Positions 12,810 to 50,713 of a DNA stretch of 61,529 nt are shown piece by piece. Both the position numbers and the translations under genes were made by a program. This DNA is from an uncultured Verrucomicrobiota bacterium. GTDB lineage: Bacteria > Verrucomicrobiota > Kiritimatiellia > CAIKKV01 > CAIJXV01. Position 1 is the stretch's first letter, and every line of letters starts with the position of its first letter. Where the stretch lies: the NCBI GenBank assembly GCA_964497135.1, contig CAZCDO010000002.1, positions 1 to 61,529 on the forward strand, in the 5' to 3' direction. The notes below the pieces were generated by a model, which saw only the letters and a list, made by a program, of their open reading frames with translations, ran no database searches and was not told the origin of the DNA.

Positions 12810-12922
12810 AAGCTCTCCAGACGCCTGCCGGACTTTGACGGCACCAAAGACCGGCAGAAGCCGACCAACCACTCTGTTTGTGCCCGCATGCCATTTTTCG
12901 TTGGGCACTGGCCCCGATTCAA

Positions 12923-12951
12923 CCTAGATTCGGCAGTTCAAAGAGTTTTGA
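12923..12951. repeat. Right arm of the perfect 29-bp inverted repeat
   Basis: cctagattcggcagttcaaagagttttga is the exact reverse complement of 7489-7517. It lies 113 nt after the giant gene stop. Confidence 0.9.
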
Positions 12952-12990
12952 ATTGCTCATTTTAGGTTCAACCCCGGCATCCGATTGACA

Positions 12991-13019
12991 TTGACTTGCC
13001 CCGCCCAGGATTCCATACT
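12991..13019 (+). promoter_or_regulatory. Sigma70-like promoter candidate for the CNNM-hpt-hflX operon
   Basis: TTGACT (12991-12996), a 17-nt spacer, then CATACT (13014-13019), about 70 nt upstream of the ATG at 13092. Confidence 0.3.
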
Positions 13020-13091
13020 GCGTTCCTATTATGAATATTTTGGCATCCATTGTTCGACAACGCCTGATGTGTTGTCCCACCTGATTCTGCC

Positions 13092-24992: not shown

Positions 24993-27413
24993 TCATTGCA
25001 CGGGAATAGCCCCGGAAAAACCCCATTGCGTCAGCTGGGGGCCCGGGGAGGTGTTGGACCACCGATACCACCGCCCCGAAACCGGCGCATAGACCATCGG
25101 GTCCGATCGTCCATCGCCATCAAAATCCCCTCGAACCGGTAGAACTCCCGGGAATCCCCATTGCAGTCGCCAAATCAGTACTTTTGTTTGGGCCGGAGAA
25201 TAGACATACCAGTGACTGGTCGCGCGATCAACCGCCACCAGGTCATCCGCACCATCGCCATCAAAATCACCGGCCATCGACGTCCCCCACGGGCCTCCCC
25301 AACCGAAATCCCAATTCAATATCCGCCGGCGGGATAGGGAATAGATATACCAGTGGCCGGAGGCCGGATTAACAATGCCCAGATCCGCGCATCCATCCCC
25401 ATCATAATCGCCCGCAAGGGTCACTCCGCCGACAAATCCCCAGGCAAAATTCCAGAGCAGAATCCGTCCACTCAAGGTCCGGATAAACCAATGTCCGCTG
25501 AACGAATCAATCACGGCCAGATCATTCGTCCGATCCCCATCGTAATCGCCGGGAACGGGGACTGCCCCCGCCCAACCCCATTGAACATCGGTTGCCAGCG
25601 TCGCGCCCGATAGCGTCCGAATCGACCAACGCCCCTGATGATATGCCGCTAAATCATTTCGCCCATCGCCATTGTAATCACCGGGAAGAACCCGGGACCC
25701 CAAGGTGCCCCAGGGAAGCGCCCAGGCTAAAACGGTTCCCGTCCCCGAGCGAATAAACCAGTGACCCGTGGCCGCATGCCAGACCGCGAGATCGGCCGTT
25801 CCGTCGCCATCATAATCGGACCGGGTCCCCAACCGTACCGGGGGAGAATTATAATCCACCCCGAACGCACCGACCGGTCCTCCGGGCGTGCGCATCAATC
25901 CCGCAAAATCCCGGATTACCAGATTGACCCGGTTCCCTTCCGGGGCCAGAGGAGGTTGTGCCCGATCGCCGCCCGGGAAATCCGGAATCGGCGCCGAGAC
26001 AATCGAAAGAAAGGTCTCATTCGAAATCGGCCGAAAATCGCCATTTTCCGGATCCATTAATAGGGGCTTGATCTGGTTGATCAGGTTTTGAGAATTGACC
26101 AGGGCCGGATTACACGTGGGATGATCCGCCTGCCCGCCCTGGCCCGGTTCCCCCAACCCCAAGGGAAGCCCCACCGGCCCGTTCCAGATCAGGTTGCCTT
26201 GGATTCTCAAATTGGTATCCACAGCGGCAGGCGAAGGGACCGGCGTACTGGCAGGAGGAATCACCGGTCCCGGCACGGTGAAGTGTTGCCAGATCGAGCC
26301 GAATCCGGAGGGATTATAGATCAGGTTATTGTAAATATAAACATTACGGGACGGGATATATTGGCCGTCGGCTTCAGCGGAGGCCCCCCATCCGCCGGCG
26401 GCCCGGTAGGCATCGCATTGGGCGATGTTGCCGTCACAACTCCGGGCCCCGTGTGTAACTTCAATCACATGATCATTGGTTCCGGCCTTGTACAGGGTAT
26501 TATAGGCCAGCAGAATATTGTACCCGCCATTCACTCCCATGCCCGCCACACCGGTATGATGAATCACATTATTGACAAACTTGATATCCTCCGCCTCGTA
26601 ATGAATCCAGGGGGAGACCATGTACTCGAACCCGGTTCCCTGCCCGGCCGTGAAGCCACCCGTCCGAGCCTCAAACAACTCGTTGCCTTCAATCCGTAAA
26701 TAAGCCGACCCTCCTTTGACGTACAGACACCAATCACCGGCCCGGTGAATCCGCGAACCAATAATATGGCCGTATTGAACCCCGACCGCGTCAAAGGCGT
26801 TATCCCACCCGCCGGATATGTCACAATTCTCAACGTATAAATATTGGGTCTGGTTGACTTTTAGACCCTCCTGGGGCCCCTCGTAATGGTCAATATCTCC
26901 TACCCCTTGGATCCGGCAGTTGCGGATTAGAATATTGCGACAGCCCGCAAAATGCAGGACATCGCCCCCCCCCGCGCGAAGATGGAGTCCGATCAGGTAA
27001 AGATACTGACAGTTCGAAACATCCATCGCAGGCAGCAGTGCCGTTCCGTCGCCGTCAACGGCCTGGATGAGGACGGGGGCTGAATAGACGCCTCGTCGAT
27101 CCGCATACCAGCCCGGTGTTTCCGCGTAGGTGCCAGCCGTCAAAAGCAGGCGGTACCCGTGGCTGAGCGTCACCCCGCTGGGAATCCGATTCCAGGCTTC
27201 AGTCAGCGTTCTTAACGCCAGCGCCCGGCTGACACCGGACCGGGCATCGTCTCCATTAACGGGGTCAATCCACACATCGAACAACGCCGGGGTCCCCATG
27301 GAATACACGGGGGGATTAAATGACTGGGCGCCCGCCGGTTCAATCAGGCAAAGCCAGAGAACTCCCAGCCAGGTCCATCCGCTTCGGCCCGAACCGAAGA
27401 AAGAAGGTTTCAT
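24993..27413 (-). CDS. Secreted right-handed beta-helix (pectin-lyase-fold) protein with six C-terminal FG-GAP/VCBS-type repeats
   Basis: Internal ATG at 27411-27413 gives a signal peptide (MKPSFFGSGRSGWTWLGVLWLCLIEPAGAQS). Beta-helix signatures are NILIRNCRIQG and YLYVENCDISGG. Six D[YF][DN]GD[GR] repeats follow. Confidence 0.85.
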   Translation of the reverse strand: MKPSFFGSGRSGWTWLGVLWLCLIEPAGAQSFNPPVYSMGTPALFDVWIDPVNGDDARSGVSRALALRTLTEAWNRIPSGVTLSHGYRLLLTAGTYAETPGWYADRRGVYSAPVLIQAVDGDGTALLPAMDVSNCQYLYLIGLHLRAGGGDVLHFAGCRNILIRNCRIQGVGDIDHYEGPQEGLKVNQTQYLYVENCDISGGWDNAFDAVGVQYGHIIGSRIHRAGDWCLYVKGGSAYLRIEGNELFEARTGGFTAGQGTGFEYMVSPWIHYEAEDIKFVNNVIHHTGVAGMGVNGGYNILLAYNTLYKAGTNDHVIEVTHGARSCDGNIAQCDAYRAAGGWGASAEADGQYIPSRNVYIYNNLIYNPSGFGSIWQHFTVPGPVIPPASTPVPSPAAVDTNLRIQGNLIWNGPVGLPLGLGEPGQGGQADHPTCNPALVNSQNLINQIKPLLMDPENGDFRPISNETFLSIVSAPIPDFPGGDRAQPPLAPEGNRVNLVIRDFAGLMRTPGGPVGAFGVDYNSPPVRLGTRSDYDGDGTADLAVWHAATGHWFIRSGTGTVLAWALPWGTLGSRVLPGDYNGDGRNDLAAYHQGRWSIRTLSGATLATDVQWGWAGAVPVPGDYDGDRTNDLAVIDSFSGHWFIRTLSGRILLWNFAWGFVGGVTLAGDYDGDGCADLGIVNPASGHWYIYSLSRRRILNWDFGWGGPWGTSMAGDFDGDGADDLVAVDRATSHWYVYSPAQTKVLIWRLQWGFPGVLPVRGDFDGDGRSDPMVYAPVSGRWYRWSNTSPGPQLTQWGFSGAIPVQ
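24996..25820 (-). repeat. Six tandem FG-GAP-like coding repeats of about 45 aa
   Basis: SDYDGDGTADLAV, GDYNGDGRNDLAA, GDYDGDRTNDLAV, GDYDGDGCADLGI, GDFDGDGADDLVA and GDFDGDGRSDPMV, each followed by a hWaI/WG segment. Confidence 0.75.
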
Positions 27414-27417
27414 GTTG

Positions 27418-28200
27418 TCATTCCACCGGCGGCAGGGCGCCTTCTTGAACCAACTGGGCATCCTGCGTGGGAGTCAACGGAATGGGCAGGGCGGGTCCCA
27501 ATTCGCCTCCGGCGCGAATGAGTTCCATATTGTACTCCTGCATGATTTCTTCGTGCTCTTCCGGCGTGATGGGTTCATCGTCGGGGATATTCATCAGGGC
27601 GCGCTTGGCTGAGCGTGGCGGCGGCAATTGACTCTTAATCTTGTTGTATTCCTCTCGAGTCATCCCCTTACCGATCGCTTTGGCTGGCCGCCGCGAATGG
27701 GCACGAGGCGTTGCGGACGGAGAGACGGCGGCGGCGAGTTTCATCGGTTCGGGTGCCGATGCCGATGTGTCGTCGCCGGACATCGAAATCCACCGCTCCA
27801 ACCCATCTTTCCGGATTTGCGCCCGTTCGGCGGCATAATCGGCTTGCAATAACTCAATCCCGTTCTCGGTCTCGCCCACACCCAACATGTAACTCTTGTT
27901 CTGTTGGGGATCCAGAATGCCCACCATGATTTTGCCCGAATTATCCTCAATAATCGCCGACATTTTCAAGGCATTAACCGCCGCTGCGGCCTCACCAGCG
28001 GGTGTTCCCGGCGCACCGGCCGCGGTCGGTACCGTTTCACTGCCAAACGGGTGTCGATCCAGAATTACCTGATACCGGTCGAAAGTGGGGGAAAGAGGCG
28101 CCGCCAGTGCAAACGAATGGATCAGGATCAAACTGAACAGTCCCCCCCCGCATCCGCAGGACAGGACCGGTTTCCACCATGAATTATGTAGGACTGACAT
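27418..28200 (-). CDS. Hypothetical periplasmic protein with a signal anchor and a weak GspC/PilP-like segment
   Basis: Internal ATG at 28198-28200 (MSVLHNSWWKPVLSCGCGGGLFSLILIHSFALA). The segment LKMSAIIEDNSGKIMVGILDPQQNKSYMLGVGETENGIELLQADY...IRKDG follows the T2SS-C/PilP beta-domain pattern. The upstream ORF extension runs through a repeat element. Confidence 0.6.
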   Translation of the reverse strand: MSVLHNSWWKPVLSCGCGGGLFSLILIHSFALAAPLSPTFDRYQVILDRHPFGSETVPTAAGAPGTPAGEAAAAVNALKMSAIIEDNSGKIMVGILDPQQNKSYMLGVGETENGIELLQADYAAERAQIRKDGLERWISMSGDDTSASAPEPMKLAAAVSPSATPRAHSRRPAKAIGKGMTREEYNKIKSQLPPPRSAKRALMNIPDDEPITPEEHEEIMQEYNMELIRAGGELGPALPIPLTPTQDAQLVQEGALPPVE

Positions 28201-28259
28201 GACCTTATTAAAGCTAAAAAACGGACAAAATGAAAGCTGAATGATGCGTCCGGGGTAAG

Positions 28260-28365
28260 GGGTCAGTGACGGGGGATGAACAGGTAGGGCGGTTTCGCCG
28301 AAACCGCCGTGGACGGCTCGGCGAGCCGTCCCTACCAATGTTCGCCCCCCCCCCGTCACTGACCC
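28260..28365. repeat. REP/MITE-like nested-palindrome element, copy 1
   Basis: 16-bp terminal inverted repeats at 28260-28275 and 28350-28365. A 52-nt core (28284-28335) is closed by gtaggg/ccctac and contains two 10-bp palindromes (ggcggtttcg.cgaaaccgcc and ggacggctcg.cgagccgtcc). It sits in the 190-nt gap inside the operon. Confidence 0.85.
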
Positions 28366-28390
28366 GTCACCGTCCGGGGCGTAGCCTCGC

Positions 28391-31300
28391 CTATCGATCC
28401 GAAGGGGCATTGCGATAAAATGGCAGATACCGGTAATAGACTTCAAGGCAGAGAGTCGCCATCGTGGTGGAATAAACCCGGCCGCCACGCTCTCCCAGGG
28501 GATCGACCGGATCCCAACTGCCATCGGCCGGCCCCTCTTTGCGCTGTCCGCTTAACAGCGCTTCGCGCAAGGCCCGGTTCCAGGGTTCGAACGCTTCACT
28601 CCCCGATAGATGGAGCGCCAGCGTGGCGTAATACCAGTAGTAGAAATGAATCACGCCGCGGGTGGCCGGATCCCACACCGGCCGGTTTTCCATGAGATAA
28701 CTCGCGGACTCACCCTCGCCCCGGGTGCGAACCTGTTCCCCCATGAACAATTGACAGAACCAGCCCTCGGCCGTCATGATCGGCGTCGGGCCATGCCCTT
28801 CCTTATAGGCATACAAGCCGCCACTCTTTCCGCGCCGCACCTGGTCCAGCCAGAGTCCGGTCCATCGAAAATGTTGCGGATTCACCGGGAAGCCCGCAAA
28901 CTCACCGCTTTTGAGTGCAAGGACCATCCAGCCGGTCACCGACGTATCATTATCGGTCCGCGGCTCATAACGCCATCCCGCGCCCAAATTCTGCGAATCA
29001 CAGATGAACTGGACGGCCCGCCGCGCAGGCTCAAACAGCCATTGGTCTTCAGACAGGGAATAAGCCTCGCACAATGCCGCCGAGGCCATCGCCTGGGCAT
29101 ACATATTCCCGCCGCGGCGCAAATCGCCGGCCGTTGTCTGGCCCGCGATGAGCCATTTGAGTCCCTTACGGACGGTCTCCCGATAATCTCCCCGGGTATG
29201 CGTGTAGCCCGCGCCCAGATAGGCGAGCAGGGCCAGCCCGGTGACCGCGGAATCGCTGTCGGTCCGGTCGCCAACGCCACCGCATTCGTCAGCCCCCTTG
29301 AATCGGCCCACGGACCAGCGCCCATCGTCACTCTGTGCCCGAACCAACCAGGCCAATGCGCGTTCGACGGCTTTCTCCGTCTCCGCACTGCCGCCCAATT
29401 CCAATATGTGTTCCTGTCGTTTTTCCGGCGACCGAAGCGAATAGATCAATTTCTGCCGCTGCAATTTGGGGGTCGACCTCATTTCCGCGGCGCTCACGGA
29501 ACGATAAGCGGCCAGTCGTTCGCCTCGCGGCAGGGTATCGGGCACCTCCACTTTGCCCTCGCCACTCATCCCCGCAAACCAGGTCATCAGGCGCGAGGAA
29601 CGAGGGGCTTCCGACCCGGCAAGGGCCGAATCCGTCATCGAACGGCTCGGTCCCTTCACCACCGCTCCGCTATCCATCCCGGACGTTGCTTTGTTTACGG
29701 CCACATCGCGCGAAACTCCCCCCGTTTCAGCGGACGGTTTTGCCGCACCCGGCCGGGATACGGACTCGGTCGCGGTTCGGGCGTTAAAAGGAAGCCCGAC
29801 CACCCCGTTTTTCATAGGAGAGGAGGGACTGGCCGCCGCGCTATCCGGCTCGTAATCGCTTAGCACGGGACGGCCGGATGAAACCCCAGTCTGGACCATG
29901 ACCAGTTTGGCATCCGTGCCAACCGGTTGGGACGCAGGGGCTGGTTGACGCGAACCGGCTCCCCTCCATCGCTCCGAGATCGGTGTTTCACGTGCTTCAT
30001 GTGCTTCATGTGCTTCCGTTCGGGCGGACGACCAACTCTCCGGGGTGGAAACTCCGCGTCGGGCCAGGGCGCCCCCGGCGTTGGCGGAAACATCAGCAGA
30101 GGGGCTCTCGCCCCGTATCGTGCCGGGCATAATATCCGCCATTGCCCCATGGGCGGAACGTCCCGCCCCGCTGGCATCGACTTTGAGATCCGCACCCGAA
30201 ACCGGCGCATCATCCGACCCGGCCGAAAAAAATCCGGTGATTTGGGCCACCCATGATCCGTCCGACTTGGGCGTTCCCCCTTCAGCGCGCTTCGGTGCGG
30301 CGGGCGGCGCGCCAACCGGCCCGGTTTCGCCCCCTCCCGTTCCGCTTCGTTTCAAAACAAGTTTCTCGCTCCCACCCGGAGAGCCACTGGCGGATTCCGT
30401 CTCCTCATCGCGCAGTTCGGCCTGTGATGCCGGCAGAGCGCGGTTACCGACTGCGCCGGCCAGCGGTTGTCGATCCCCTTCCCCCCGGCGCCCGGTGCCT
30501 TGAAGGGTCTCGCGGGAAGATTCCACACCCGCCGACGCACCACCCGATAACGGCGCCACTTCGCGCTCTGCCAGGGTCTCCTGGATTTCACCGCCGCCAC
30601 GAGCCATCTTTACGGGACCACTCGTCTTGAATGGACGACCTCCCAGGCCAGCCTCCGGCGCGGACAACTCGCCTCGCCCGCTTTGTATTTCGAAGGCTCG
30701 CCCTGTCGTGCGGGCGGTAGGGGTCGATTCCGCGGGAGCCGGCTCTGTTTCCGTGAGATCCGCCGAAGACGCCACGCCGCGGAGCGGGTGGGCCGGATCA
30801 CGCAAGGCCGCCAACCGGGCAACTTCTTCATTCACCGGCGAGGCCGTCGCATTCGCCCGCGACGGAAGGGCCTGGAGCCGGTCAGCCACCAAACTTCCGC
30901 GCCCCTCTGCGGTTGCCGCCAGGGCACTCTGGGCCGTCGGACGGGCCACCGATCCGGCCCCTGCGTCGGGTGAGGCTCTCGATCGTGCCGGCGCTGGAAT
31001 GTCACCGGAGGGACCGGCCGCCGATCGGAGGGTCGGATGAGGGGCATCAATCGAAACCGCCGTTGAACCCATGCGAACCGGTTCGTCGGAAAGTCGGCGC
31101 AGATCTGCCCGGACAACGGGTCCATCGGGCGACTGTGGTTGGAGCTTGGACAAGACTGAAGGATCGGACTGAGCCAGTCGGGTCGCCCTTTGCGCATCCA
31201 GCTTCAGTTGGGCGGTTCGTTCGGGCCGCGTCTGAACGGTGGGTTGATCGGCGGCCGTCCTGACGGAATCCATCGGCCGCTGGGGATCAGGGGACTGCCG

Positions 31301-32212
31301 TGTCAGGGGGCTGGATTGGGGCACAGACAATGCGGACGGCATCGAAAGCCGATCCGTGTCATTACGGACTTCCGTCTGTCGCAAATCGTCTTGCACCTGA
31401 AGACGGGACACCGACTGGGGTTGAGTATCCAATGCGTCGCGCCGCGGGTCCCTGCCCTTCTCTGGCACCATCGGTCGGGGGGGAGTCGTCTTGGTCTCCG
31501 CCAGCCGGGTCGCGGTTCGAACGGCCTCCAACTCGCGGGTTGCGCGGGGGGACACGGCCTCGACTGGCACGAGTTCAACTTTATGTTGGGGGGCGATGTG
31601 TGGCGTGGACACATCGGCCGACAGCTCGTCTGCGGTTTTGATACGATCTTCCACGCGTAGATCCGGGCGTGAAGCCGGTTGTGCCGGGACCAGCGATCTG
31701 AGGGATTCCGCCTGTTTTGCCGGTTGTTGCGGTAATAGTTTTTTTGTCACCTGGGCATCCGAAGGCGGACGGGGTTTCGCCCGATTCTCGAAAGTCCGGG
31801 CATCGACCGTCTTCATTTCAATCCGTTGGTCGCGAACCGCCTCGCGGGCATCAGTTTCCAGGAGCGAGGGCGTGCCGAAGGCGATTTCTCGCCGCGACCG
31901 TTCCCGGGGGACGGTTGGCATCGGATTCGCGGCGAAGTCCACCACTCCAAAAAACATCACCAATCCCATGTGCAGAAAGAGACTGAGCAGGACACAAAGG
32001 GTCAGTAACCGGAATCGCCGGGACGACAGATGAACCACCAGCGTCAGAACGGCGAGCAGGGCCAGCCCCAGCAATAGCCCGCCCGGAGTGAATTGACGGT
32101 AAACCTTCCGAACCGCCGGCACCCATAGGGGCAAGGCGATACTGGCCAATAAGGCTGCCCCTCCCAGGACGGGCAGTATGATCCGTGCGATGATCCGGTT
32201 CCCCGTCATCAT
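28391..32212 (-). CDS. TolA/TonB-position membrane-anchored giant protein: three N-terminal TM helices with an S-x3-H motif, a long low-complexity spacer, and a C-terminal prenyltransferase/terpenoid-cyclase-like alpha-alpha toroid domain
   Basis: 1,273-aa ORF with ATG at 32210-32212. TM3 reads LLSLFLHMGLVMFF. Residues about 100-945 are P/A/S/R/T/E-rich. The last 327 aa (28394-29374) carry ...WLVRAQSDDGRW..., ...DSQNLGAGWRY... and ...ADGSWDP... repeats typical of squalene-cyclase/prenyltransferase-type toroids. Confidence 0.8.
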   Translation of the reverse strand: MMTGNRIIARIILPVLGGAALLASIALPLWVPAVRKVYRQFTPGGLLLGLALLAVLTLVVHLSSRRFRLLTLCVLLSLFLHMGLVMFFGVVDFAANPMPTVPRERSRREIAFGTPSLLETDAREAVRDQRIEMKTVDARTFENRAKPRPPSDAQVTKKLLPQQPAKQAESLRSLVPAQPASRPDLRVEDRIKTADELSADVSTPHIAPQHKVELVPVEAVSPRATRELEAVRTATRLAETKTTPPRPMVPEKGRDPRRDALDTQPQSVSRLQVQDDLRQTEVRNDTDRLSMPSALSVPQSSPLTRQSPDPQRPMDSVRTAADQPTVQTRPERTAQLKLDAQRATRLAQSDPSVLSKLQPQSPDGPVVRADLRRLSDEPVRMGSTAVSIDAPHPTLRSAAGPSGDIPAPARSRASPDAGAGSVARPTAQSALAATAEGRGSLVADRLQALPSRANATASPVNEEVARLAALRDPAHPLRGVASSADLTETEPAPAESTPTARTTGRAFEIQSGRGELSAPEAGLGGRPFKTSGPVKMARGGGEIQETLAEREVAPLSGGASAGVESSRETLQGTGRRGEGDRQPLAGAVGNRALPASQAELRDEETESASGSPGGSEKLVLKRSGTGGGETGPVGAPPAAPKRAEGGTPKSDGSWVAQITGFFSAGSDDAPVSGADLKVDASGAGRSAHGAMADIMPGTIRGESPSADVSANAGGALARRGVSTPESWSSARTEAHEAHEARETPISERWRGAGSRQPAPASQPVGTDAKLVMVQTGVSSGRPVLSDYEPDSAAASPSSPMKNGVVGLPFNARTATESVSRPGAAKPSAETGGVSRDVAVNKATSGMDSGAVVKGPSRSMTDSALAGSEAPRSSRLMTWFAGMSGEGKVEVPDTLPRGERLAAYRSVSAAEMRSTPKLQRQKLIYSLRSPEKRQEHILELGGSAETEKAVERALAWLVRAQSDDGRWSVGRFKGADECGGVGDRTDSDSAVTGLALLAYLGAGYTHTRGDYRETVRKGLKWLIAGQTTAGDLRRGGNMYAQAMASAALCEAYSLSEDQWLFEPARRAVQFICDSQNLGAGWRYEPRTDNDTSVTGWMVLALKSGEFAGFPVNPQHFRWTGLWLDQVRRGKSGGLYAYKEGHGPTPIMTAEGWFCQLFMGEQVRTRGEGESASYLMENRPVWDPATRGVIHFYYWYYATLALHLSGSEAFEPWNRALREALLSGQRKEGPADGSWDPVDPLGERGGRVYSTTMATLCLEVYYRYLPFYRNAPSDR

Positions 32213-32266
32213 TCGTCCCTTGTTGACTGGCCCGATGAGACCGGTGCGAACAGGTCGGGGGCTGCC

Positions 32267-32680
32267 TTACTCACCGGTCTTGCTCGTGGTTAGGAACGTG
32301 CGATCCACCCCGCGTTTCTCGCACAAATCAAGAACGTTCACGGCATATTGCAGAATAGAACCCTTATCGCCGCGCACCACGACCACCTGTCGCGGATTCT
32401 CCGCAACGGTTTTAGCCAGCAACCCATCCAAACCCTCCGGCGTCAGTTCCCTTCCGGCCACCAACAGGCGTCCGTCGTGAGTGATATTGACGATCAGTTC
32501 CTGCGGCTCCGCGGTAATGGGTCGGGCGTGACGACTGGAGGGCGGCTTGACCCGCACGTCGCGTTCGATGTCCGCGAATTTGGTGGCGACGAGAAAGAAA
32601 ATGAGCAGGAGAAAAACCATGTCAATGATCGGCGTCATGTTGATGCCGGTCTCCGATTCGGGGGGGCGTTTGATTCGCAT
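32267..32680 (-). CDS. exbD: ExbD/TolR-family biopolymer transport protein
   Basis: Internal ATG at 32678-32680 lies 4 nt after the exbB stop. MTPIIDMVFLLLIFFLV is a TM helix with the conserved Asp, followed by a periplasmic ExbD fold region. Confidence 0.9.
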   Translation of the reverse strand: MRIKRPPESETGINMTPIIDMVFLLLIFFLVATKFADIERDVRVKPPSSRHARPITAEPQELIVNITHDGRLLVAGRELTPEGLDGLLAKTVAENPRQVVVVRGDKGSILQYAVNVLDLCEKRGVDRTFLTTSKTGE

Positions 32681-32684
32681 AAGG

Positions 32685-33464
32685 TCAGCCCCGGGTCGGA
32701 ATTTTGACAACCAGTTCCTCGGCCAGGGAATCCAGTTCGACGACAAACGACTCCACTTTTTCGATGTAAAAGTAGTAGAAAACCAGCGCGGGAATCGCGA
32801 TTGCCAGCCCGACCGCCGTTGTGACCAGGGCCTCATAAATGCCGGCCGCGAGCAATTCGGTCCGCCCCAGGGCTTCGGCCCGCGAGGCGACCGTCATGAA
32901 GGACTTGATCATTCCGGTGACTGTTCCGGTCAAACCCAACAGGGGAGCGATACTGGCTCCCATGGAAAGCACCCGGCAATTGCGGCGCAGCACGCCGGCT
33001 TCCTTGGCGCCGGCATCTTCGATGGCCTTCTCGATTTCCTGGATCGTCCGATGGGCTTTGCGCAGGCCCGCAATGGCAACCCGGGCGAGCGGATCGGAAC
33101 GCAATTCAAGTTGCGTCTTCAAGGCTTCCGCGTCGATCGCCGGCTCCGAGCCCCGCAGGGCATTTTGAATAATCTCCTGGGTGTCAGCGGGGAGAATTTT
33201 CGAACGACGCAATGCCAGTCCCCGCTCGATCGCAAACGCCACCATCACGATACTGCATAAACCCAGGGGATACATTAAAGCCCCGCCCTTGAGCAGAAGT
33301 TCCAGCAAGGTCAACTGTTTCGCCGGCTCGTCATCCAGCGGGACGGCCTCGGCGTTCATCTCGCCCGAAGGGGCGGGTCCAACGGAAGAAGTCTGCGCCA
33401 CTGACAGGCCCCAAGCCAACGTACAAAACAGTCCGACACCCACCGCCCAGTTTCTGATCTTCAT
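32685..33464 (-). CDS. exbB: MotA/TolQ/ExbB proton-channel family protein
   Basis: 259-aa ORF with an N-terminal signal-like extension. Typical ExbB segments are present: LLKGGALMYPLGLCSIVMVAFAIERG and APLLGLTGTVTGMIKSF. Confidence 0.9.
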   Translation of the reverse strand: MKIRNWAVGVGLFCTLAWGLSVAQTSSVGPAPSGEMNAEAVPLDDEPAKQLTLLELLLKGGALMYPLGLCSIVMVAFAIERGLALRRSKILPADTQEIIQNALRGSEPAIDAEALKTQLELRSDPLARVAIAGLRKAHRTIQEIEKAIEDAGAKEAGVLRRNCRVLSMGASIAPLLGLTGTVTGMIKSFMTVASRAEALGRTELLAAGIYEALVTTAVGLAIAIPALVFYYFYIEKVESFVVELDSLAEELVVKIPTRG

Positions 33465-33485
33465 ACCATCCTCACTCGTTTATCG

Positions 33486-36400
33486 TTACAGGGATTTGAG
33501 CCGTTCAGCCGCCAACTCGGCCCAGCGCGTTCCCTTGAATTGCTTCACCACTTCGCGATAGGCCTTTTGGGCCTCCTCCGCGGACCCCAGCGCCTGCTGA
33601 CATTTTCCGCTTTCGAACATCCCGGCGGCGACCCATTCACCATATTGCGGATACAGGGCCTGAATTCGTAAATACGCCACCAACGCCTGTCGGAAGTCTT
33701 CCTTCATCTGGAAAACCTGTCCTGAATAAAATTGCGCCCGAGCGGCAACTTCCGCCCGACTTCGCCGGGTTACTTCCTGAAAATCAATCAGTGCTTCGTC
33801 GTATTGCGCCAGATCATAATGGGCTTTGCCCTTAAGAAAAAAAGCGTCGGCGGCGGCCGCATGGTCTCCGTATCGGGCCGTCATGACGCCCAGTATTTTC
33901 AATGCCGCCTGAGGATCCCCGGTGCTCAACAACCCCTCCCCCAGCCCGACATAGGCTTCGGGAATGAAGGGAAACGCCGAGAACTTAGCCGTCTCGACCA
34001 GAGTCCGATACCGTTCCACCGCCTGGGTCGCCTGTCCCGAACGGGCATGGGACTGTCCGGACTGGAACAGGGCATCCGGCATGAGTTCACTGGCGGAAAA
34101 ATCCTTTGTCAATTGATCAAATTCCCGGGCGGCTTCCCCATATTTGCCGCCGAGCCAATAGGTCCATCCCATCCGGTAGCGAGCCTTATCGCCCAGGCGT
34201 TTAGCTTCCTTGGAGGACAGCACTTTCTCGTACTGTTCACGCGCCTCGGCCAAAGGCTTGGCGGGCACAACCCCGTCCTTCCCCCCGGCCACCGCCTCCG
34301 CATAGGCCGCTTCTCCGAGGTGGAAATTCGCATCGGCGGCAAGCGGGTCAGTTGGAAAACTTCGCACCAACGCGCGAAAGGCCTGAAGCGAAGCGGCAAC
34401 GTCCCCGGCCTCGCGCCAGGACCAGGCCTGTTCGTATTGCACCCGCGGCTGATCCTCGGCTTTGGCGTCCTGCTCCGCGGCCGCCCCAAAAGCCTGCGCC
34501 GCCTCCCGCCATTTTTTCTGCTCTTGAAGGCTATAACCCAGCGACACGCGGGCCGGGCGGGAAAGGTCATGTTTGGGATAGTTCTCCAGCAACTGGTTCA
34601 GCGACGCCGTGGCCTCTTCCCATCGCTTCAATTTCATCAGGGTACGGCCTTTGCGGTAAAGGGCCTGCGGCACCAGTTCCGATTTCGGGTGGTTTTTGAG
34701 TAACGCGTCATAAGACGCGAGTGCATCGGGCCACCGGCTTTGTTCATCCCGACAGACCCCCCGGCCTAAAAGGGCAAACGGGGCCAAATCCCCCGCGGGG
34801 ACAACCGCCAGGATTTTTTCATATTCGCCGATGGCTTTGTCGAACTGCCGGGCCTCCAGATACAATTCCGCCAACGAGTACCGCGCCTGGGAAGCCAGGT
34901 CACTGGATTTGAATTCCTTGAGAAATCGCTCGTAAGCATCCATCGCCCGGTCTTTTTTGCCGGTGGCCGTCTGGGCCGCGGCCAACCGGAGCCAGGCATC
35001 ATCCCCATAGCGACTCCGTTCCGCCGACTTGAGATACCGTTCCAAGGCATCGGCCGCTTCGGCTGGCCGCCCGGATTCCAGGAGGCAGACTCCGCGCAGA
35101 TAGAGGACTTCATCGACAATGGCTTTTCCGGCGGCGGGGGTTACCCCGTCCAACTCGGCCAACGCCGTTTTAAAGTCTCGAGCCTGACGATGTACCCAAG
35201 CCAGTCGGTAATGGGCCCGCGCCACGTTTTCGGGGGTGGCCTGAGGGTGTTTGATCAATTCGCGATATCGCGTTCCGGACCGGTCGAAGTCCTTGGCCAG
35301 AAAACGGTTTTCGCCGCTCAGAAAGAGAACTTGCGCGGCCAGCGGATCGGCCGCGTAACTCGCCAGAAATTCAGCGCAGAGACGATCCGACTCCGGATAT
35401 TGGTCGGCCCGGTGCAAGGCCACACACGCCGAATATAAAGCCCGGGGAGCCTGATCCGAACCCGCGGCCGATTGGGCGAAGGAACGGAAGGCCGCGGCGG
35501 CTTCTGGAAGTTTATCCTGGGCCAACAGGGCATCCCCCAGCCCCAGGCGCATCTCTTTCGCGCGTACGGAATTCGGAAAATCGAGCAGGCTTTGCGAAAA
35601 TTGCTTTTCCGCATCGGCATTCCGTCCCTGCTTCAAAAGGCACATCCCGAGCCAGTAAGCAGCTTCGTCGGCCTGTTCCTTTTTCGCTTCGGCTAAAGGG
35701 CGCAGGCGCGCGGCCGCTCCGGCATAATCGCCGGTTTCATAGAGAAAAGTCCCGGCATAGAGGGACGCCTGTGTCACCTTTTCACTTTTCGGGAAACGCC
35801 GGGTCAGGTCCGCAAACACGGTCGCCGCCTCGCCCAGTCGACCCGCCTTGTATAAGGCCAACCCGCGCTCAAAAGCCGCGCCTTCGGCGAATTCACCCGT
35901 GGGGGCCACCGCCGCATAGGCTTCCGCCGCCTCCGCATAGACCTTTTCCTGATACAGGGATTGGGCCAGCCGGAACTGCGCCTCATCTTTCAAGGTACTC
36001 TGCCGATGGCGCTCGAGAAAACGCCGGAAGGAAACGCGCGCGTCGGCATAGCGCTCCCGATTGAATTGGGCAATGGCGTAATAGAACTCGCTCCGCTCCA
36101 CCAGACTTAAAAAGGCGTCCTGCGCCTTGACCCCGGCCTCATCCAACCGGCGAAACATCGCGCGCGTCGCCTCGCTCTCTTCCGCTTTTTTTTCGCCCGG
36201 CGCGTACTTTTCCAGAAACCCCTTCAACAATTCCTCCGCCTCGGGGAACCGCCCCAGGCTGATATGACAGGCCGCCTGGCGGGCGACCGACCAGTCGGCC
36301 AGATAATGCGACCCGAACCGGGCGCGAACCTCGCCAAACAGGGGCTCCGCCCGGCCCAACTGATCGAGCGCAACGCGGCATTGCGCCAACTGGAATAGCG

Positions 36401-36758
36401 CCTCGACGGTTTGCGAAAAACTGCCATGTCGATTCCGAAGAATTTCATATTCTTCGGCCGCTTCCTTGAACTGATCCTGATAGAAAAACGATTGCGCCAG
36501 ACCGAATCGCGCATCGGCCGCTTTTTCGTGATCCGGATACGCACGCAGGAAACCCTGGTAGGAATCCTTGGCCAACGGATATTTACCCTGATTGTAGAGC
36601 CAGGCCGCAAAATTGTAATCGTCAATCGCCTTGTCAGTGGCCGGCTTTTGCGCCCACACCGGCATCGCGAGCAATAATAGAATCAGCACGGATGCGAACA
36701 TCTTTGTACAGGATGAACTGAGAGTCACGGGGCGGCCTCCTTTGCCATTCGTTTTCAT
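33486..36758 (-). CDS. Giant secreted TPR protein built from many CpoB/YbgF-like TPR units
   Basis: The ATG at 36756-36758 is one possible start; the alternative ATG at 36699-36701 (MFASVLILLLLAMPVWAQ) looks more like a signal peptide. The YbgF-like pattern (A.Y..A......Y..A...F..FL..YP.S..A..A.Y.LG) recurs along the whole length, for example near the C-terminus: DEALIDFQEV...YPQYGEWVAAGMFESGKC. Confidence 0.85.
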   Translation of the reverse strand: MKTNGKGGRPVTLSSSCTKMFASVLILLLLAMPVWAQKPATDKAIDDYNFAAWLYNQGKYPLAKDSYQGFLRAYPDHEKAADARFGLAQSFFYQDQFKEAAEEYEILRNRHGSFSQTVEALFQLAQCRVALDQLGRAEPLFGEVRARFGSHYLADWSVARQAACHISLGRFPEAEELLKGFLEKYAPGEKKAEESEATRAMFRRLDEAGVKAQDAFLSLVERSEFYYAIAQFNRERYADARVSFRRFLERHRQSTLKDEAQFRLAQSLYQEKVYAEAAEAYAAVAPTGEFAEGAAFERGLALYKAGRLGEAATVFADLTRRFPKSEKVTQASLYAGTFLYETGDYAGAAARLRPLAEAKKEQADEAAYWLGMCLLKQGRNADAEKQFSQSLLDFPNSVRAKEMRLGLGDALLAQDKLPEAAAAFRSFAQSAAGSDQAPRALYSACVALHRADQYPESDRLCAEFLASYAADPLAAQVLFLSGENRFLAKDFDRSGTRYRELIKHPQATPENVARAHYRLAWVHRQARDFKTALAELDGVTPAAGKAIVDEVLYLRGVCLLESGRPAEAADALERYLKSAERSRYGDDAWLRLAAAQTATGKKDRAMDAYERFLKEFKSSDLASQARYSLAELYLEARQFDKAIGEYEKILAVVPAGDLAPFALLGRGVCRDEQSRWPDALASYDALLKNHPKSELVPQALYRKGRTLMKLKRWEEATASLNQLLENYPKHDLSRPARVSLGYSLQEQKKWREAAQAFGAAAEQDAKAEDQPRVQYEQAWSWREAGDVAASLQAFRALVRSFPTDPLAADANFHLGEAAYAEAVAGGKDGVVPAKPLAEAREQYEKVLSSKEAKRLGDKARYRMGWTYWLGGKYGEAAREFDQLTKDFSASELMPDALFQSGQSHARSGQATQAVERYRTLVETAKFSAFPFIPEAYVGLGEGLLSTGDPQAALKILGVMTARYGDHAAAADAFFLKGKAHYDLAQYDEALIDFQEVTRRSRAEVAARAQFYSGQVFQMKEDFRQALVAYLRIQALYPQYGEWVAAGMFESGKCQQALGSAEEAQKAYREVVKQFKGTRWAELAAERLKSL

Positions 36759-36909
36759 TCGTATCGGATCCAGGGGGAATCCGAAAGAACAAGAATAATA
36801 CGCCGGTTTGAATGCCATGACAATCGCCAAGTGCGGTAATTTCCCATTGTGTTCTGGATGGGGCGTGATAAATTGGCGACCTTCAAGTCGGATTCACGGG
36901 AGAACACGT

Positions 36910-38151
36910 ATGAAAAGTTTATTTGACCGGGGCGGGTTGCTGGCAGTGGGACTCGGCGTGCTGTTGACGAGTGGCGGTCAGGCCCAGACGAATGAGAATG
37001 AAACCTTCTGGAACCAAGCGTATCTGTCCGTCGGCGGAGGTCTGTTGGATTTCGAACGGGATGAAGCAGTTGAAAGCGCCGGCTTGATCGCCATTCGTCT
37101 CGGGTACGAACTCTCCGAATCCTGGTCCACTGAAATCGGCCTCGATCTCCTGCCGCGCCTGCCTCAAAGCATGCGAACCGAATGGGATACGGGACAACAT
37201 ATTTCACGCCTCAAAGAGCAGGCCGGAGTGGATGAAACCTCCGCGATCCGGCTGGGGGTTGAGGCTTTATGGCATATCGCGCGCCGGTCAACACTGGATC
37301 CCTACCTCGTCCTGGGCGCCGGCGGCATCTGGTATGACGACACCTTTGACCAGGAATTTGAAGGGTTTGGCCAGACCGGAGCGGGCTGTTTTTACCACTT
37401 CAATGAAAACTGGGCCTTGCGCGCAGATGCGCGGGCCATCCTGGCGGGAAATGATACGGAATTCAACTCCACTTATACCCTGGGTCTGGTGTTTTGGCCC
37501 GCTTCCCGCTCGGTTGAAACTCGCGCCGATACCCGCCCCGGGACCACCATGGCCCCCGCCACACCCCTAGTGCAAGACGCCGATAACGACGGTCTTACGG
37601 ATGCCGAAGAGAAACAATACGCCACCGACCCGATGCGTGCGGATTCCGATTGGGACGCTCTGTCCGATGGCGATGAAATTCATAAACACAAAACGGATCC
37701 CCTGAAACGGGACACCGATGGCGGCGGCGTGTACGATGGCCACGAAGTGATCGAGGATAAGACCGGCCCGTCTCAACCGGCTGATGACTTGCAATTCTTC
37801 GAATTGCGCCTGATGTTCGATCCCAACGATTCGACAATCAAATCCGAATATTTTTCAGAAATCGGCGTCATTGGGAAAATCCTGCGCGACGACCCCGGCG
37901 CCACGGCGCGCATTGAGGGTCATCTCGACTCACATAGCTATCCATCGGTACGGCGGGCACAAACCCTTTCCGAGCGTCGCGCGCAGGCCATCCAGGACGC
38001 GCTGGTCGCTGATTGGAAAATCACCCGCAATCGCTTGACCACCGCCGGTTATGGCGCCACCCGACCCAAGGGGCCCAGCCAGCCCGAAAAGGGCACTGCC
38101 GAAAACGAGCGGATCGAAATTTATATCCGCCGCACGACGGCCTGGCGTTAA
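36910..38151 (+). CDS. OmpA-family outer-membrane protein: beta-barrel, thrombospondin type-3 repeats and an OmpA_C peptidoglycan-binding domain
   Basis: Internal ATG at 36910 gives a signal peptide (MKSLFDRGGLLAVGLGVLLTSGGQAQT). TSP3 repeats read DADNDGLTDAEE, DSDWDALSDGDE and DTDGGGVYDGHE. The OmpA_C end reads IEGHLDSHS...LSERRAQAI...AGYGATRP...NERIEIYI. Confidence 0.85.
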   Translation: MKSLFDRGGLLAVGLGVLLTSGGQAQTNENETFWNQAYLSVGGGLLDFERDEAVESAGLIAIRLGYELSESWSTEIGLDLLPRLPQSMRTEWDTGQHISRLKEQAGVDETSAIRLGVEALWHIARRSTLDPYLVLGAGGIWYDDTFDQEFEGFGQTGAGCFYHFNENWALRADARAILAGNDTEFNSTYTLGLVFWPASRSVETRADTRPGTTMAPATPLVQDADNDGLTDAEEKQYATDPMRADSDWDALSDGDEIHKHKTDPLKRDTDGGGVYDGHEVIEDKTGPSQPADDLQFFELRLMFDPNDSTIKSEYFSEIGVIGKILRDDPGATARIEGHLDSHSYPSVRRAQTLSERRAQAIQDALVADWKITRNRLTTAGYGATRPKGPSQPEKGTAENERIEIYIRRTTAWR

Positions 38152-38161: not shown

Positions 38162-38530
38162 TTAGGGCTTGATCAGGCTGTCCAGATTGGCAAACGGATT
38201 GACGATGGTCGACCGCTCGCGAGGATCGACCGCCGTACTTCCGCCGGCGCCCCCCCGGTCATGGGCGGCGGCATGTTCATCATCGTGGCAATAGAGACAC
38301 AGGAGTTCCCAATTGCTCCCATCGGGCGGGTTGTTCTTGAAGTTTTGATCCTTATGGTGAACCGTTAATTCGCGCAACCGCTTGCCATCGAAGGTCCGGG
38401 CACACCGCGCGCAAACATGGGGTAACAGTTTGAGCGCCCGATCGCGATAGTTCCGTTCGCGCAGGTCGATGTCTTTCTTTAAATCCGCACGAATTTGGGC
38501 TTGTTGAGCGGGGGTCATCGGAGTGCTCAT
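38162..38530 (-). CDS. yajD: YajD-like HNH endonuclease-family protein
   Basis: Internal ATG at 38528-38530 is preceded by GGAGG. LRELTVHHKDQNFKNNPPDGSNWELLCLYCHDDEH closely parallels E. coli YajD as I recall it. Confidence 0.85.
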   Translation of the reverse strand: MSTPMTPAQQAQIRADLKKDIDLRERNYRDRALKLLPHVCARCARTFDGKRLRELTVHHKDQNFKNNPPDGSNWELLCLYCHDDEHAAAHDRGGAGGSTAVDPRERSTIVNPFANLDSLIKP

Positions 38531-38546
38531 GCGGTTCCTCCCTCTG

Positions 38547-39596
38547 TCATCGGATCGGGACCGACTTCCCGGCGGTGGCACTGGCGTAAATCGAATCCAG
38601 CATTTTCTGCACGACCCAGCCGTCCTCGCCGGGTGCATCGCAAGCGATGCCGTCCGTAATGCAATCCACGAAATGCTGGAGTTTATACTGGAAGGCGTCC
38701 CCTTCCCCCAGATAGGCGGGCGTATTATTGAACATGTAGCCCATATCATCCTTGAAAATCGTCGGCGGATCCAACAGCGCACCGCCTTTTTCACCCATGA
38801 TCTGGACATTCCAGACATCCTTCTCAATATGCGCGGCAAAGCTGGACTCGATCGTCAGGCTGGTGCCCGTATCGAACCGCAGAAAACCCACCGCCAGATC
38901 TTCCACCGTATAGGTCTTGTGGTCCCACGCGCCCCACGAACATTTGGCGGCCGGTTTTTGATTGCCGAGATAGGTGTAACACGATCCGTCGGCCGCGATC
39001 GGTTTAGGACGGCCGATCACATAATGGGCCATTTCCAAAATATGGACGCCAATGTCGATCATCGGGCCGCCGCCTTGAATCTCCTTGCGTCCAAACACGC
39101 CCCACGAAGGAATCCCCCGCCGGCGCAACGCCTGACAGCGGACATAGAGAATTTTGCCGAGATCGCCCCGGACAATCGCCTGCCGCATGAATTGCGCGGC
39201 CGGGGTGAAGCGCCACTGGAATCCGATCATCAACAAGCGTTTGGCTTTACGGGCCGCCGCGCACATGGCCGCGGCATCCCGGGCATTCATCGCCATCGGC
39301 TTTTCGACAATCACCGGACGACCGCTCGCCAAGGCATCCAGGGTCGGCTGGTAGTGTAATTTATTGGGAGTGCACACGGCGACCGCATCAATATCTTTGC
39401 GCTTGAGCAAATCCCGGTAATCGGGATAACAGGTGATCGAAGGCTCCAGTTTCTGGGCTTCCTCCAACGCTTGGGGATGAACATCGGCCGCCGCCAACAC
39501 CCGGGCGCCTTTGACTTTTTTGAAAATATTGATGTAATGCCGACCAATGCCACCCGACCCGATAATCCCGATTCCCAGCGTATCGCTCTTCTTCAT
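38547..39596 (-). CDS. Gfo/Idh/MocA-family oxidoreductase
   Basis: Internal ATG at 39594-39596 is preceded by GGAGG. It has a GIGIIGSGGIGRHY Rossmann motif and an EKPMA motif. Confidence 0.9.
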   Translation of the reverse strand: MKKSDTLGIGIIGSGGIGRHYINIFKKVKGARVLAAADVHPQALEEAQKLEPSITCYPDYRDLLKRKDIDAVAVCTPNKLHYQPTLDALASGRPVIVEKPMAMNARDAAAMCAAARKAKRLLMIGFQWRFTPAAQFMRQAIVRGDLGKILYVRCQALRRRGIPSWGVFGRKEIQGGGPMIDIGVHILEMAHYVIGRPKPIAADGSCYTYLGNQKPAAKCSWGAWDHKTYTVEDLAVGFLRFDTGTSLTIESSFAAHIEKDVWNVQIMGEKGGALLDPPTIFKDDMGYMFNNTPAYLGEGDAFQYKLQHFVDCITDGIACDAPGEDGWVVQKMLDSIYASATAGKSVPIR

Positions 39597-40125
39597 GAAA
39601 TCCTCCTGAAGTCCAACTATCTCACTGCACGGCACCAACCCCGCTTTGAGTCGTCAACGGCATCGGCTGAAAATACAGTCTACGCCAGTCCCCTGCAAGC
39701 CGATTGTTTGCAGGTGAACCCGTTCCCCTCAGCCGTGAGGGGACGCCCGGCTTTACTCCGAAGTAGAGCCAGATCTCCGAAGGTGTGAAAAAATGATGTA
39801 GCACCGTTCTATGAACGGTTTCCTGTGTCGAATTGTTAAGAAATTCAGGCGCTCATAGAGCCCCGAAAATCACGATTATACCAGGCGCTGATCATACCCA
39901 CCGCACAGCCATTCGAAGCGGTGATCAGAAAACAACGCCGGTTTCAGAATGAGATGAAGCTCGAGAGTCCTCGTCGGTCCCGCGGCTGTCATCTATAACT
40001 CGATCCGAACAGTGGGACAAGTTGTTTTTTGGGGCTTTGTTTTCAATTCTTGTACTACCTCCTGTTTTTTGGCAGTTTATGAATTTAGGCGTTTTGATCG
40101 ATTGCACTCAAACAAGGAACCCCGC

Positions 40126-42527: not shown

Positions 42528-43010
42528 ATGGCAACAATTAATCGGCCGGACCCTATGTCACTTCAGCACAATACCGCTGGCATCCTGCTCAAGGTTGTTC
42601 CCCGGGTGATGCGCACGGTTCGTACCGACATGCGGAGTTTTCGGGACCACAGCCTTTCCGTCCCCCAGTTTCGCACACTCGGGTTCATCCATCGCAATTC
42701 CGGAACGTCCCTCTCTCAAGCCGCTGAACATATTGGCCTGACCTTGCCCGCCATGTCCAGGCTGGTCGAGGGTCTCGTGAACCGTCAACTGCTGGTCCGT
42801 CAGCGTCATCCGGATGACCGGCGGCGCATCACGCTGGACCTGACCGCTCGCGGCCATTCCATATGGGTTTCTGCGCGGGAATTCACCCAGGTTTCACTGT
42901 CTGGAAAGCTATCTGCATTGAGCCCGAAGGAACATGCCACGATATCCCATGCGATGACGATTCTGGGCCGGATATTCGCCCGGGATTCACTCCGAGGAAA
43001 TACAGAATGA
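42528..43010 (+). CDS. MarR-family transcriptional regulator
   Basis: I prefer the ATG at 42528 to the TTG at 42522. The winged HTH reads LSVPQFRTLGFIHRNSGTSLSQAAEHIGLTLPAMSRLVEGLVNRQLLVRQRHPDDRR. Confidence 0.9.
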   Translation: MATINRPDPMSLQHNTAGILLKVVPRVMRTVRTDMRSFRDHSLSVPQFRTLGFIHRNSGTSLSQAAEHIGLTLPAMSRLVEGLVNRQLLVRQRHPDDRRRITLDLTARGHSIWVSAREFTQVSLSGKLSALSPKEHATISHAMTILGRIFARDSLRGNTE

Positions 43011-47200: not shown

Positions 47201-47304
47201 TCGGAGGACTGGCCAGTTCAACCCTACTGACCTTGATATTCGTCCCCGTCGTTTACTCGCTTTTCGAGGAAGGTTGGAGGCCCCATGCGAAACAAGATCA
47301 GTAA
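44203..47304 (+). CDS. RND efflux permease (AcrB/HAE family)
   Basis: Internal ATG at 44203 overlaps the upstream stop by 1 nt. It starts [25 protein letters not shown] and has the 12-TM, two-large-loop organisation typical of AcrB-like pumps. Confidence 0.95.
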
Positions 47305-50618: not shown

Positions 50619-50713
50619 CAGCCTGGCGGACTATGGCTCTGCCAAAGATCCGCCAGGCTGCTAATAAGGAGGGTAATTATACGCGACAACATATGTATTG
50701 ATCATTTCAACCG

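Follow-up and report, generated by a model that had tools for sequence, protein, structure and literature searches.

A four-gene module of an ExbB/ExbD-type motor, a giant TPR protein and a toroid-headed membrane anchor, conserved in Planctomycetota, Kiritimatiellia and Victivallales

Background

To our knowledge, few outputs of the 5:2 motors of the ExbB/TolQ/MotA type are known, namely Ton, Tol, flagella, gliding with the type IX secretion system (T9SS), and Zorya. The Tol-Pal system is encoded as tolQ-tolR-tolA-tolB-pal-cpoB. TonB and TolA possess a signature transmembrane (TM) helix with a serine and a histidine at fixed spacing, S16...H20 in TonB and S18...H22 in TolA. The envelope biology of the Planctomycetes-Verrucomicrobia-Chlamydiae (PVC) bacteria, with their FtsZ-less division and large periplasm, is poorly understood. 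Here we analyse a stretch of 61,529 nt from an uncultured member of the Kiritimatiellia (contig CAZCDO010000002.1 of assembly GCA_964497135.1; in the following, the window). It contains, on the minus strand, genes for a giant tetratricopeptide repeat (TPR) protein, for an ExbB/TolQ-like and an ExbD/TolR-like motor subunit and for a long membrane protein which ends in a helical toroid and is here called the anchor. The closest published analogue of this module are the PVC 'force transducer' loci with a von Willebrand factor type A (vWA) domain, for instance in Tichowtungia aerotolerans, in which a TPR gene is followed by a tolQ-like gene, two tolR-like genes and a gene for a TM-helix-vWA protein; these transducers, which combine an SHLS helix with a disordered linker and a vWA head, were added as a new class in 2025 (PMC12204202, Mol Biol Evol 2025). 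A toroid-headed motor module was not found described in the literature searched, where these vWA loci were the only lead.

A first-pass annotation of the window had joined the four genes with three neighbours, at positions 24993 to 38151, into one Tol-Pal-like, proton-motive-force-driven envelope machine of undescribed composition. All seven open reading frames (ORFs) and their tight junctions are present on the strands given there, and the domain calls and an intergenic palindrome are real as judged from the ORF map and Pfam/NCBIfam. An envelope apparatus centred on a motor, probably driven by the proton motive force and of undescribed composition, is borne out by synteny, by an S-x3-H motif in the anchor and by the TM aspartate of ExbD, while its make-up of seven genes is not.

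Results and discussion

Conservation of four genes

Relatives of the anchor were gathered with the toroid alone as query; the full-length anchor retrieved only 3 of them because its low-complexity linker filled the candidate list. One genome per GTDB species was taken, which gave 80 loci. Their six-frame ORFs were searched with the window proteins; 84 loci were scanned, and the 58 with at least 5.5 kb of sequence upstream of the anchor were regarded as testable. The genes for the TPR protein, ExbB, ExbD and the anchor lie on one strand and in that order in 40 of these 58 loci, 9 hold a partial set and 9 none. Since the order is kept in 40 loci, the core consists of four genes, and their synteny exceeds chance by far. 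Conservation of the neighbourhood across PVC genomes, which the first-pass annotation proposed to test for the whole gene set, extends to the four core genes and not to the other three. The conserved unit of a TPR gene, an ExbB/TolQ-like gene, an ExbD/TolR-like gene and an anchor gene occurs in Planctomycetota, Kiritimatiellia and Lentisphaerota/Victivallales; the sampled loci come from Phycisphaerae, Planctomycetia, Pirellulales, Isosphaeraceae, Kiritimatiellia and Victivallales.

The nearest loci of this sample belong to metagenome-assembled genomes of uncultured Victivallales (60–65% identity), from which alone the window would probably be assigned to Lentisphaerota, and the order holds even in locus L001, where the C-terminal region of the anchor is just 35% identical. 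A metagenome scan added one close relative, L089 (73% identity), the upstream part of which is cut by the contig end. The module is tightly packed, with a median stop-to-stop distance of 436 nt between ExbB and ExbD, and the TPR orthologue, 1,050–1,150 aa long (ORF median 1,088 aa), lies directly upstream of the motor. A conserved fifth gene was sought beside the module in these loci and only lineage-specific ones were seen. In five Pirellulales loci (L036, L064, L071, L078, L082), for instance, a gene for a BON-domain protein precedes the TPR gene by about 1 kb. The window encodes a BON-domain protein as well, at 56583–57197, but this gene and the module are about 20 kb apart.

The TPR protein and the motor

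All four genes of the module are located on the minus strand of the window. The first one, for the TPR protein, is open from 33486 to 36830 and extends over 33486–36758 from its likely start at M25 (36758); M44 (36701) is the other candidate. The signal peptide ends with ...AMPVWA, followed by QKP, and the periplasmic protein of about 1,090 aa consists of approximately 11 CpoB/YbgF-like TPR units: model TIGR02795 (ybgF) matches it in 11 stretches with 342 bits. A promoter-like site is located at 36823–36795 before this gene; the consensus scan for promoters and terminators was at background level and does not settle the boundaries of the operon.

After a gap of 21 nt follows exbB (32685–33464), which codes for a proton-channel subunit of the ExbB/TolQ family with 259 aa and a signal-like N-terminal extension. 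It matches MotA_ExbB (PF01618, E 9e-27), and in NCBIfam it reaches 79.7 bits with the TolQ model (equivalog cut-off 221) and 56.9 bits with the ExbB model, both far under the cut-offs. The channel motifs LGLTGTVTGM and GIYEALVTT can be read in its translation. Only 4 nt further, exbD (32267–32680; longest ORF to 32836) encodes an ExbD/TolR-family subunit of 137 aa, matching PF02472 (E 2e-25) and the TolR equivalog model with 49.9 bits (cut-off 127). Its TM aspartate lies within MTPIIDMVF and is kept in every full-length orthologue that was inspected or motif-matched. In the Victivallales locus L005 the module orthologues match the window ExbB and ExbD at 1e-70 and 3e-55. A reading as a defence system of the Zorya type (ZorA/ZorB) was dropped, as PADLOC returned no match for any of six proteins.

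The anchor and its toroid head

The anchor gene (28391–32212) is separated from exbD by 54 nt and encodes 1273 aa. Three TM helices occupy residues 7–91 (31940–32194). The third one, LLSLFLHMGL, follows a basic cytoplasmic SSRRFR loop and carries S77 and H81 in the same S-x3-H arrangement and orientation as in the signature helices of TonB and TolA. Both residues are invariant across four Victivallales anchors, of which the linker is essentially unconserved. Hydrophobicity and motif scans detected an [S]xxxH helix in 50 of the 55 anchors linked to a motor, in line with the first-pass annotation; a phmmer search with residues 1–110 gave a single match, and the motif in the third helix surfaced only through these scans. 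Every full-length anchor examined follows a common plan: a first TM helix, a loop, a second helix, a short basic loop and a third helix with S-x3-H. In the window the helices are followed by a low-complexity linker of about 790 aa (29468–31849), rich in A (14%), S (11%), R (10%), P (10%) and G (9%).

The C-terminal head (28394–29467), a domain of about 350–360 aa, matches SQHop_cyclase_C weakly (E 1.5e-5, 24.6 bits; Pfam cut-off 26.1) and TIGR01787 with 27 bits (cut-off 322); no TolA or TonB family, TonB_C and TonB_2 included, was matched by the anchor in Pfam/NCBIfam. An AlphaFold2 model, computed from an alignment of 61 sequences, is all-helical (predicted local distance difference test, pLDDT, 91.1; predicted template modelling score 0.91) and depicts a single-domain (alpha/alpha)6 toroid with QW-like motifs. 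Foldseek lists as its top neighbours the squalene-hopene cyclase (SHC)-like structures 8pak/8paj, MstE, the thioester-containing domain of complement C3, GH76 and AGE epimerases, with template modelling scores normalised to the query (TMq) of 0.5–0.6 and 10–19% identity. A profile search of PDB sequences agrees with this result and includes an SHC match at 1e-19. Model and searches thus uphold the terpenoid-cyclase-like end proposed at first pass, and the head is predicted to be a toroid of the prenyltransferase/squalene-cyclase repeat superfamily.

The toroid family is large. An exhaustive HMMER search yielded 13,262 representative clusters (at 50% identity) with E <= 1e-3 and 4,621 with E <= 1e-30, and most of the listed members have 1,000–1,600 aa and carry the domain at their C-terminus or close to it. 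Named relatives from Phycisphaerae, Planctomycetia and Kiritimatiellota are annotated as 'hypothetical', 'terpene cyclase/mutase family' or 'prenyltransferase/squalene oxidase repeat'. The catalytic DxDD motif of class II cyclases is not kept: a single Asp of this stretch is nearly invariant in the A2 consensus (...ADxAxTGLA...), and the sequence of the window is TDSDSAV. Therefore, the domain is treated here as a putative binding head rather than a cyclase. Anchors of Phycisphaerae and Kiritimatiellia (L013, L029, L067 and others) additionally contain a PD40 beta-propeller of about 330 aa in the loop between the first and second TM helix (E 1e-23 to 1e-30), and some of these add a CarboxypepD_reg domain after the toroid. 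According to Pfam the window anchor has neither of the two.

A probable proton-driven motor-transducer

Judged from these features, the module is probably a motor-transducer of the Ton/Tol type driven by the proton motive force, that is, a variant of the known motor-transducer principle. An inner-membrane motor of the ExbB5-ExbD2 type would turn proton flow into movement, for which homology, the TM Asp of ExbD and the Thr/Glu positions of ExbB speak. As in ExbBD-TonB and TolQR-TolA, the motor would grip the third TM helix of the anchor at its Ser-x3-His face, as motif conservation and gene order suggest. Force or displacement would then run through the disordered periplasmic linker, with a length of approximately 250 to 1,200 residues, to the toroid. 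The latter would replace the C-terminal domain of TonB or TolA and might bind a glycan or protein partner at the level of the peptidoglycan or outer membrane. The secreted CpoB-like TPR array of about 1,090 aa, in view of its strict co-occurrence, may be an obligate periplasmic partner or scaffold, and the whole would work beside canonical Tol-Pal in this lineage. The output of the module may be envelope tethering or remodelling, or import.

Several observations weigh against this reading. The nine loci lacking the set carry shorter toroid paralogues (530–740 aa, except L061 with 1,431 aa) with no motor nearby, and several of them keep the S-x3-H helix; such paralogues might rely on a motor in trans, unless the motif serves another role. 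ExbD was not detectable in the variants L026 and L080. In L044 (4528–11053) ExbB and ExbD are followed by a second ExbD, a 640-aa protein without Pfam match and a separate 529-aa toroid protein, so that the anchor appears to be split and the TolR-like gene duplicated. Furthermore, the contact between motor and anchor is deduced from a short motif in a hydrophobic helix, and the periplasmic location of linker and head solely from the positive-inside rule.

Toroid proteins of 670–810 aa with no ExbBD nearby and a TonB-like helix PAWLISLxxHL... were also seen in L038, L039, L041, L056, L060 and L084. By analogy with the multiple TonB paralogues these short proteins may be orphan transducers acting on a motor in trans.

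A wider interpretation would add the four genes to Ton and Tol as a third functional class of proton-driven envelope machines, one that is specific to PVC bacteria. Its TolQR-like motor would pull the toroid through a long tether, the toroid would grip a glycan, peptidoglycan or outer-membrane partner and the giant TPR protein would serve as scaffold. We offer this idea tentatively, as one that is possible and would still more readily turn out wrong than right.

Import as an alternative output

The module might instead energise a Ton-like uptake of glycans or other macromolecules, with the toroid engaging an outer-membrane channel or the cargo. The TonB-like design of the transducer would fit this idea, and so would the carbohydrate-active enzymes GH76, AGE epimerases and PL10 among the fold neighbours of the toroid. 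Trp, Tyr and acidic residues are frequent at the invariant positions of the toroid, which in domain numbering are E150, D190, E250, R346, R362 and a Trp/Tyr cluster, and this would fit import too. Moreover, envelope tethering is already covered by canonical Tol-Pal in this lineage. However, the structural likeness is generic at the scores and identities given above, substrate-binding or degradative genes do not co-occur with the module, and neither a TonB-dependent receptor nor another outer-membrane channel is conserved beside it. In agreement with the first-pass annotation, no such receptor was seen among the scanned ORFs of the window, and none is conserved in the flanks of the module, although Ton partners are often unlinked. 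We consider import unlikely as the output.

The three neighbouring genes

According to the first-pass annotation all seven genes would form a single Tol-Pal-like machine, in which a beta-helix/FG-GAP protein takes the place of TolB and a barrel-OmpA protein that of Pal, with an extra GspC-like part. For this speaks that six genes lie on one strand with small gaps and no consensus terminator between them. The anchor gene is followed, after 190 nt, by a non-core gene for a secreted protein of 260 aa (27418–28200; longest ORF to 28524) and, 4 nt further and translationally coupled to it, by a second non-core gene for a secreted protein of 806 aa (24993–27413; longest ORF starts at 27461), both on the minus strand. 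The latter protein combines a right-handed beta-helix with six FG-GAP/VCBS-type repeats; Pfam matches Beta_helix and FG-GAP, and six D-x-D-G-D repeats are readable in the translation. On the plus strand, divergent from the TPR gene, the OmpA-like gene (36910–38151; longest ORF starts at 36808) encodes an 8-strand-type barrel followed by TSP3 repeats and an OmpA_C domain (Pfam OMP_b-brl, TSP3_bac and OmpA).

The 260-aa protein has a conserved C-terminal motif, no match in Pfam and 15 homologues that were found. Its residues 79–139 are modelled with a pLDDT of about 90 as a small beta domain like the homology region (HR) of GspC/PulC; the best Foldseek partner is 3oss_C (template modelling score normalised to the target, TMt, 0.70; root mean square deviation 2.4 Å over 65 residues; E 0.045). 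Such an HR-like fold suggests a partner which docks on the outer membrane, a further point for the seven-gene machine. The label 'GspC/PilP-like' is plausible at the level of the fold only, given this E value and the missing Pfam match, and no gsp or pil genes were found in the window or in the neighbourhoods of the homologues of the 260-aa protein.

The genomic context of the pair argues against membership in the machine. Beside the module it was found in 0 of the 84 loci scanned, nor does it adjoin the module in L089, so that the 260-aa and FG-GAP proteins cannot be upheld as parts. In a 74%-identical relative the arrangement recurs: behind the homologue of the 260-aa protein comes a beta-helix/FG-GAP protein of 822 aa, and then the 651-aa, DUF1844 and M16 genes known from the window. 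There the pair stays with DUF1844/M16, and eight genes and about 7 kb separate it from a cluster of ExbB, ExbD and a 607-aa protein. Remoter 260-aa homologues adjoin PEP-CTERM and TPR genes with no motor nearby, which hints at a different surface or exosortase-related context of this family. Two instances are L086 (10001–16050) and L088 (4937–10717), where the homologues stand beside PEP-CTERM proteins and TPR proteins of about 1,050–1,090 aa, the one in L086 with a TMEM260_N domain.

In the Victivallales relatives the genes after the anchor are unrelated to the pair: URO-D-like genes in L007, an unknown 298-aa gene in L006 and, in L005, a convergent TOTE gene, so that the L005 operon ends at the anchor. 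This TOTE conflict-system gene (11122–14088, minus strand), immediately behind the anchor, combines an AEP-TOTE primase, a ResIII helicase and DUF559.

Between the anchor gene and the pair the window contains a nested palindrome (28245–28385, strandless), with nested inverted repeats at 28254–28375 inside the gap of 190 nt. As RNA it would form a nested hairpin of about 120 nt with a minimum free energy of -94 kcal/mol (z = -7.1), and a hairpin of this strength at this position likewise speaks against one continuous unit. Its 26-nt core, for which chance would give no further match, recurs at 50713, and on alignment the shared core grows to about 60 nt. This second copy (50700–50770) is located 22 kb off in another intergenic region. 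The recurrence makes the element REP-like, resembling repetitive extragenic palindromic sequences, and a role as RNA hairpin or attenuator is possible.

The OmpA-like protein has a signal peptide ending with ...LLTSGGQAQ, no lipobox Cys and only 36 bits with Pal_lipo (cut-off 125). Its gene is divergent beside the TPR gene in L006 and lies 2.5 kb downstream in L007; this presence by or near the module in two of three Victivallales relatives is a point in favour of the seven-gene machine. The gene is missing in L005 and in every scanned locus outside Victivallales. A counterpart of Pal is thus hard to see in a protein that has no lipobox and is linked solely in L006 and L007. The FG-GAP protein fares no better as the counterpart of TolB, as synteny is missing, and FG-GAP is a different repeat family, here on a beta-helix. 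A PD40 match was not obtained in Pfam for any of the seven window proteins, and the TolB-like PD40 sits inside the anchors of other lineages. A TonB-dependent receptor, TolB, TolA or Pal was not present among the scanned large ORFs of the window.

The framing as a counterpart of Tol-Pal is contradicted by L089. Only 6 kb downstream of its toroid anchor, at 7490–11228, lies a canonical tolQ-tolR-tolA-tolB-pal cluster with TolQ of 250 aa, TolR of 167 aa, TolA of 242 aa (TonB_2), TolB of 418 aa (PD40) and Pal of 204 aa (OmpA). The canonical TolQ and TolR of L089 match the ExbB and ExbD of the window at just 3e-12 and 8e-06. For Lentisphaerae tolB-pal is listed, plus a 'tolQ-tolR-???' locus without TolA (PMC12204202), and Planctomycetes are without pal (PMC12204202). 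The cluster of L089, together with this listing, marks the module as a paralogous system that runs parallel to Tol-Pal rather than a remodelled form of it; it appears to be additional to Tol-Pal and not its substitute. Altogether, a machine of seven genes seems quite unlikely to us. The 260-aa/beta-helix pair and the OmpA-like gene are local neighbours, at most lineage-specific accessories.

Unlikely readings: signalling and catalysis

One could also think of a trans-envelope sensor or stress device, relaying a mechanical or ligand input of the head to gene regulation. In 13 of 42 syntenic loci, all from Phycisphaerae (L009, L012, L013, L016, L021, L022, L031, L034, L035, L037, L042, L055, L079), a BlaR1-type Peptidase_M56 gene is located directly upstream of the TPR gene, at a median distance of 88 nt, and in L037 (171–3071) a gene for a BlaI/MecI-like repressor precedes the M56 gene. 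This context suggests that in Phycisphaerae expression of the module is induced by an envelope signal. However, neither the window nor the other lineages have the BlaI/BlaR1 pair, and it is more simply explained as the regulator of the operon than as its output, which makes a signalling device very improbable.

The toroid could also be a tethered periplasmic enzyme next to an ordinary ExbBD pair serving TonB elsewhere, with the activity of a class II terpenoid cyclase/prenyltransferase or else of a polysaccharide lyase/hydrolase. This would fit the weak SQHop_cyclase and Pec_lyase matches in Pfam, the SHC-like best PDB matches and the name 'terpene cyclase/mutase family' at NCBI, but scores under the Pfam/NCBIfam cut-offs, the unconserved DxDD, a single toroid instead of the two-domain cyclase architecture and a motor synteny across phyla with an S-x3-H helix that chance hardly explains leave this idea very little credit.

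Other genes of the window

The remaining genes of the window have housekeeping, transport or glycan-related functions and are unrelated to the module. Among them are a surface-type protein of 1,666 aa with Laminin_G_3 and DUF2341 (7809–12809, plus strand) and a complete resistance-nodulation-division (RND) efflux operon with HlyD-type adaptor, AcrB and OEP (42863–48874, plus strand). At 38162–39638 on the minus strand an HNH-endonuclease ORF (38162–38839) overlaps the longest ORF of a GFO/IDH/MocA oxidoreductase (38547–39638) on the same strand; either the HNH gene is an insertion, or the longest ORF of one of the two genes overstates its length. A pair of genes for a CNNM/CorC-type transporter with CBS domains lies about 3–13 kb from the module both in the window (13092–15328) and in the distant relative L001 (17564–19785), which may reflect a weak conserved linkage or chance.

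Significance

If the module is a motor-transducer, it would add another head type, the (alpha/alpha)6 toroid, to the outputs of 5:2 motors. Toroid proteins now annotated as 'hypothetical' or, misleadingly, as 'terpene cyclase/mutase family' would be placed in a testable unit of four genes, for which S77 and H81 of the anchor and the TM Asp of ExbD are the predicted key residues. Should the tentative third class beside Ton and Tol prove true, the module could be the main energised link between the inner membrane and the outer membrane or peptidoglycan in Planctomycetota, which have no Pal and an enlarged periplasm; it could instead energise their unexplained uptake of macromolecules.

Comparison with known systems

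With Tol-Pal the module shares, at the level of the protein family, a TolQ/TolR-like motor, which scores slightly better with the TolQ/TolR than with the ExbB/ExbD models, the CpoB-like TPR units and, in the anchors of Phycisphaerae and Kiritimatiellia, a PD40 propeller with the fold of the TolB C-terminal domain. It differs in having no TolA domain III, TolB or Pal lipoprotein, and in a TPR protein about four times the size of CpoB. The likeness to Ton lies in the 5:2-type motor family and in a transducer whose TM helix bears a His and whose long linker is rich in Pro, Ser and Ala; in contrast to Ton, the module has no TonB_C domain and possesses a constant giant TPR partner.

With the vWA loci, which occur in the same PVC taxa, the module has in common that an uncharacterised TPR gene precedes the genes of a TolQR-like motor, and that behind these comes a membrane protein with an SHLS-type His helix, a linker predicted to be disordered and a globular head neither of the TonB nor of the TolA type. 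Pfam matched no vWA domain in the window anchor or in six related anchors, including that of L044, the sole variant in which two ExbD genes were seen. The module differs from these loci by its (alpha/alpha)6 toroid head, by one ExbD/TolR gene instead of a heterologous pair and by an anchor with three TM helices instead of one and a far longer linker. With regard to the head itself, the best structural neighbours are the single-domain SHC-like 8pak/8paj and the class II terpene cyclase MstE, with which it has the (alpha/alpha)6 toroid and QW-type repeats in common. Identity to these is 18–19% at a TMq of about 0.6, DxDD is unconserved and, unlike these proteins, the toroid of the module forms the distal end of a motor-linked membrane protein.

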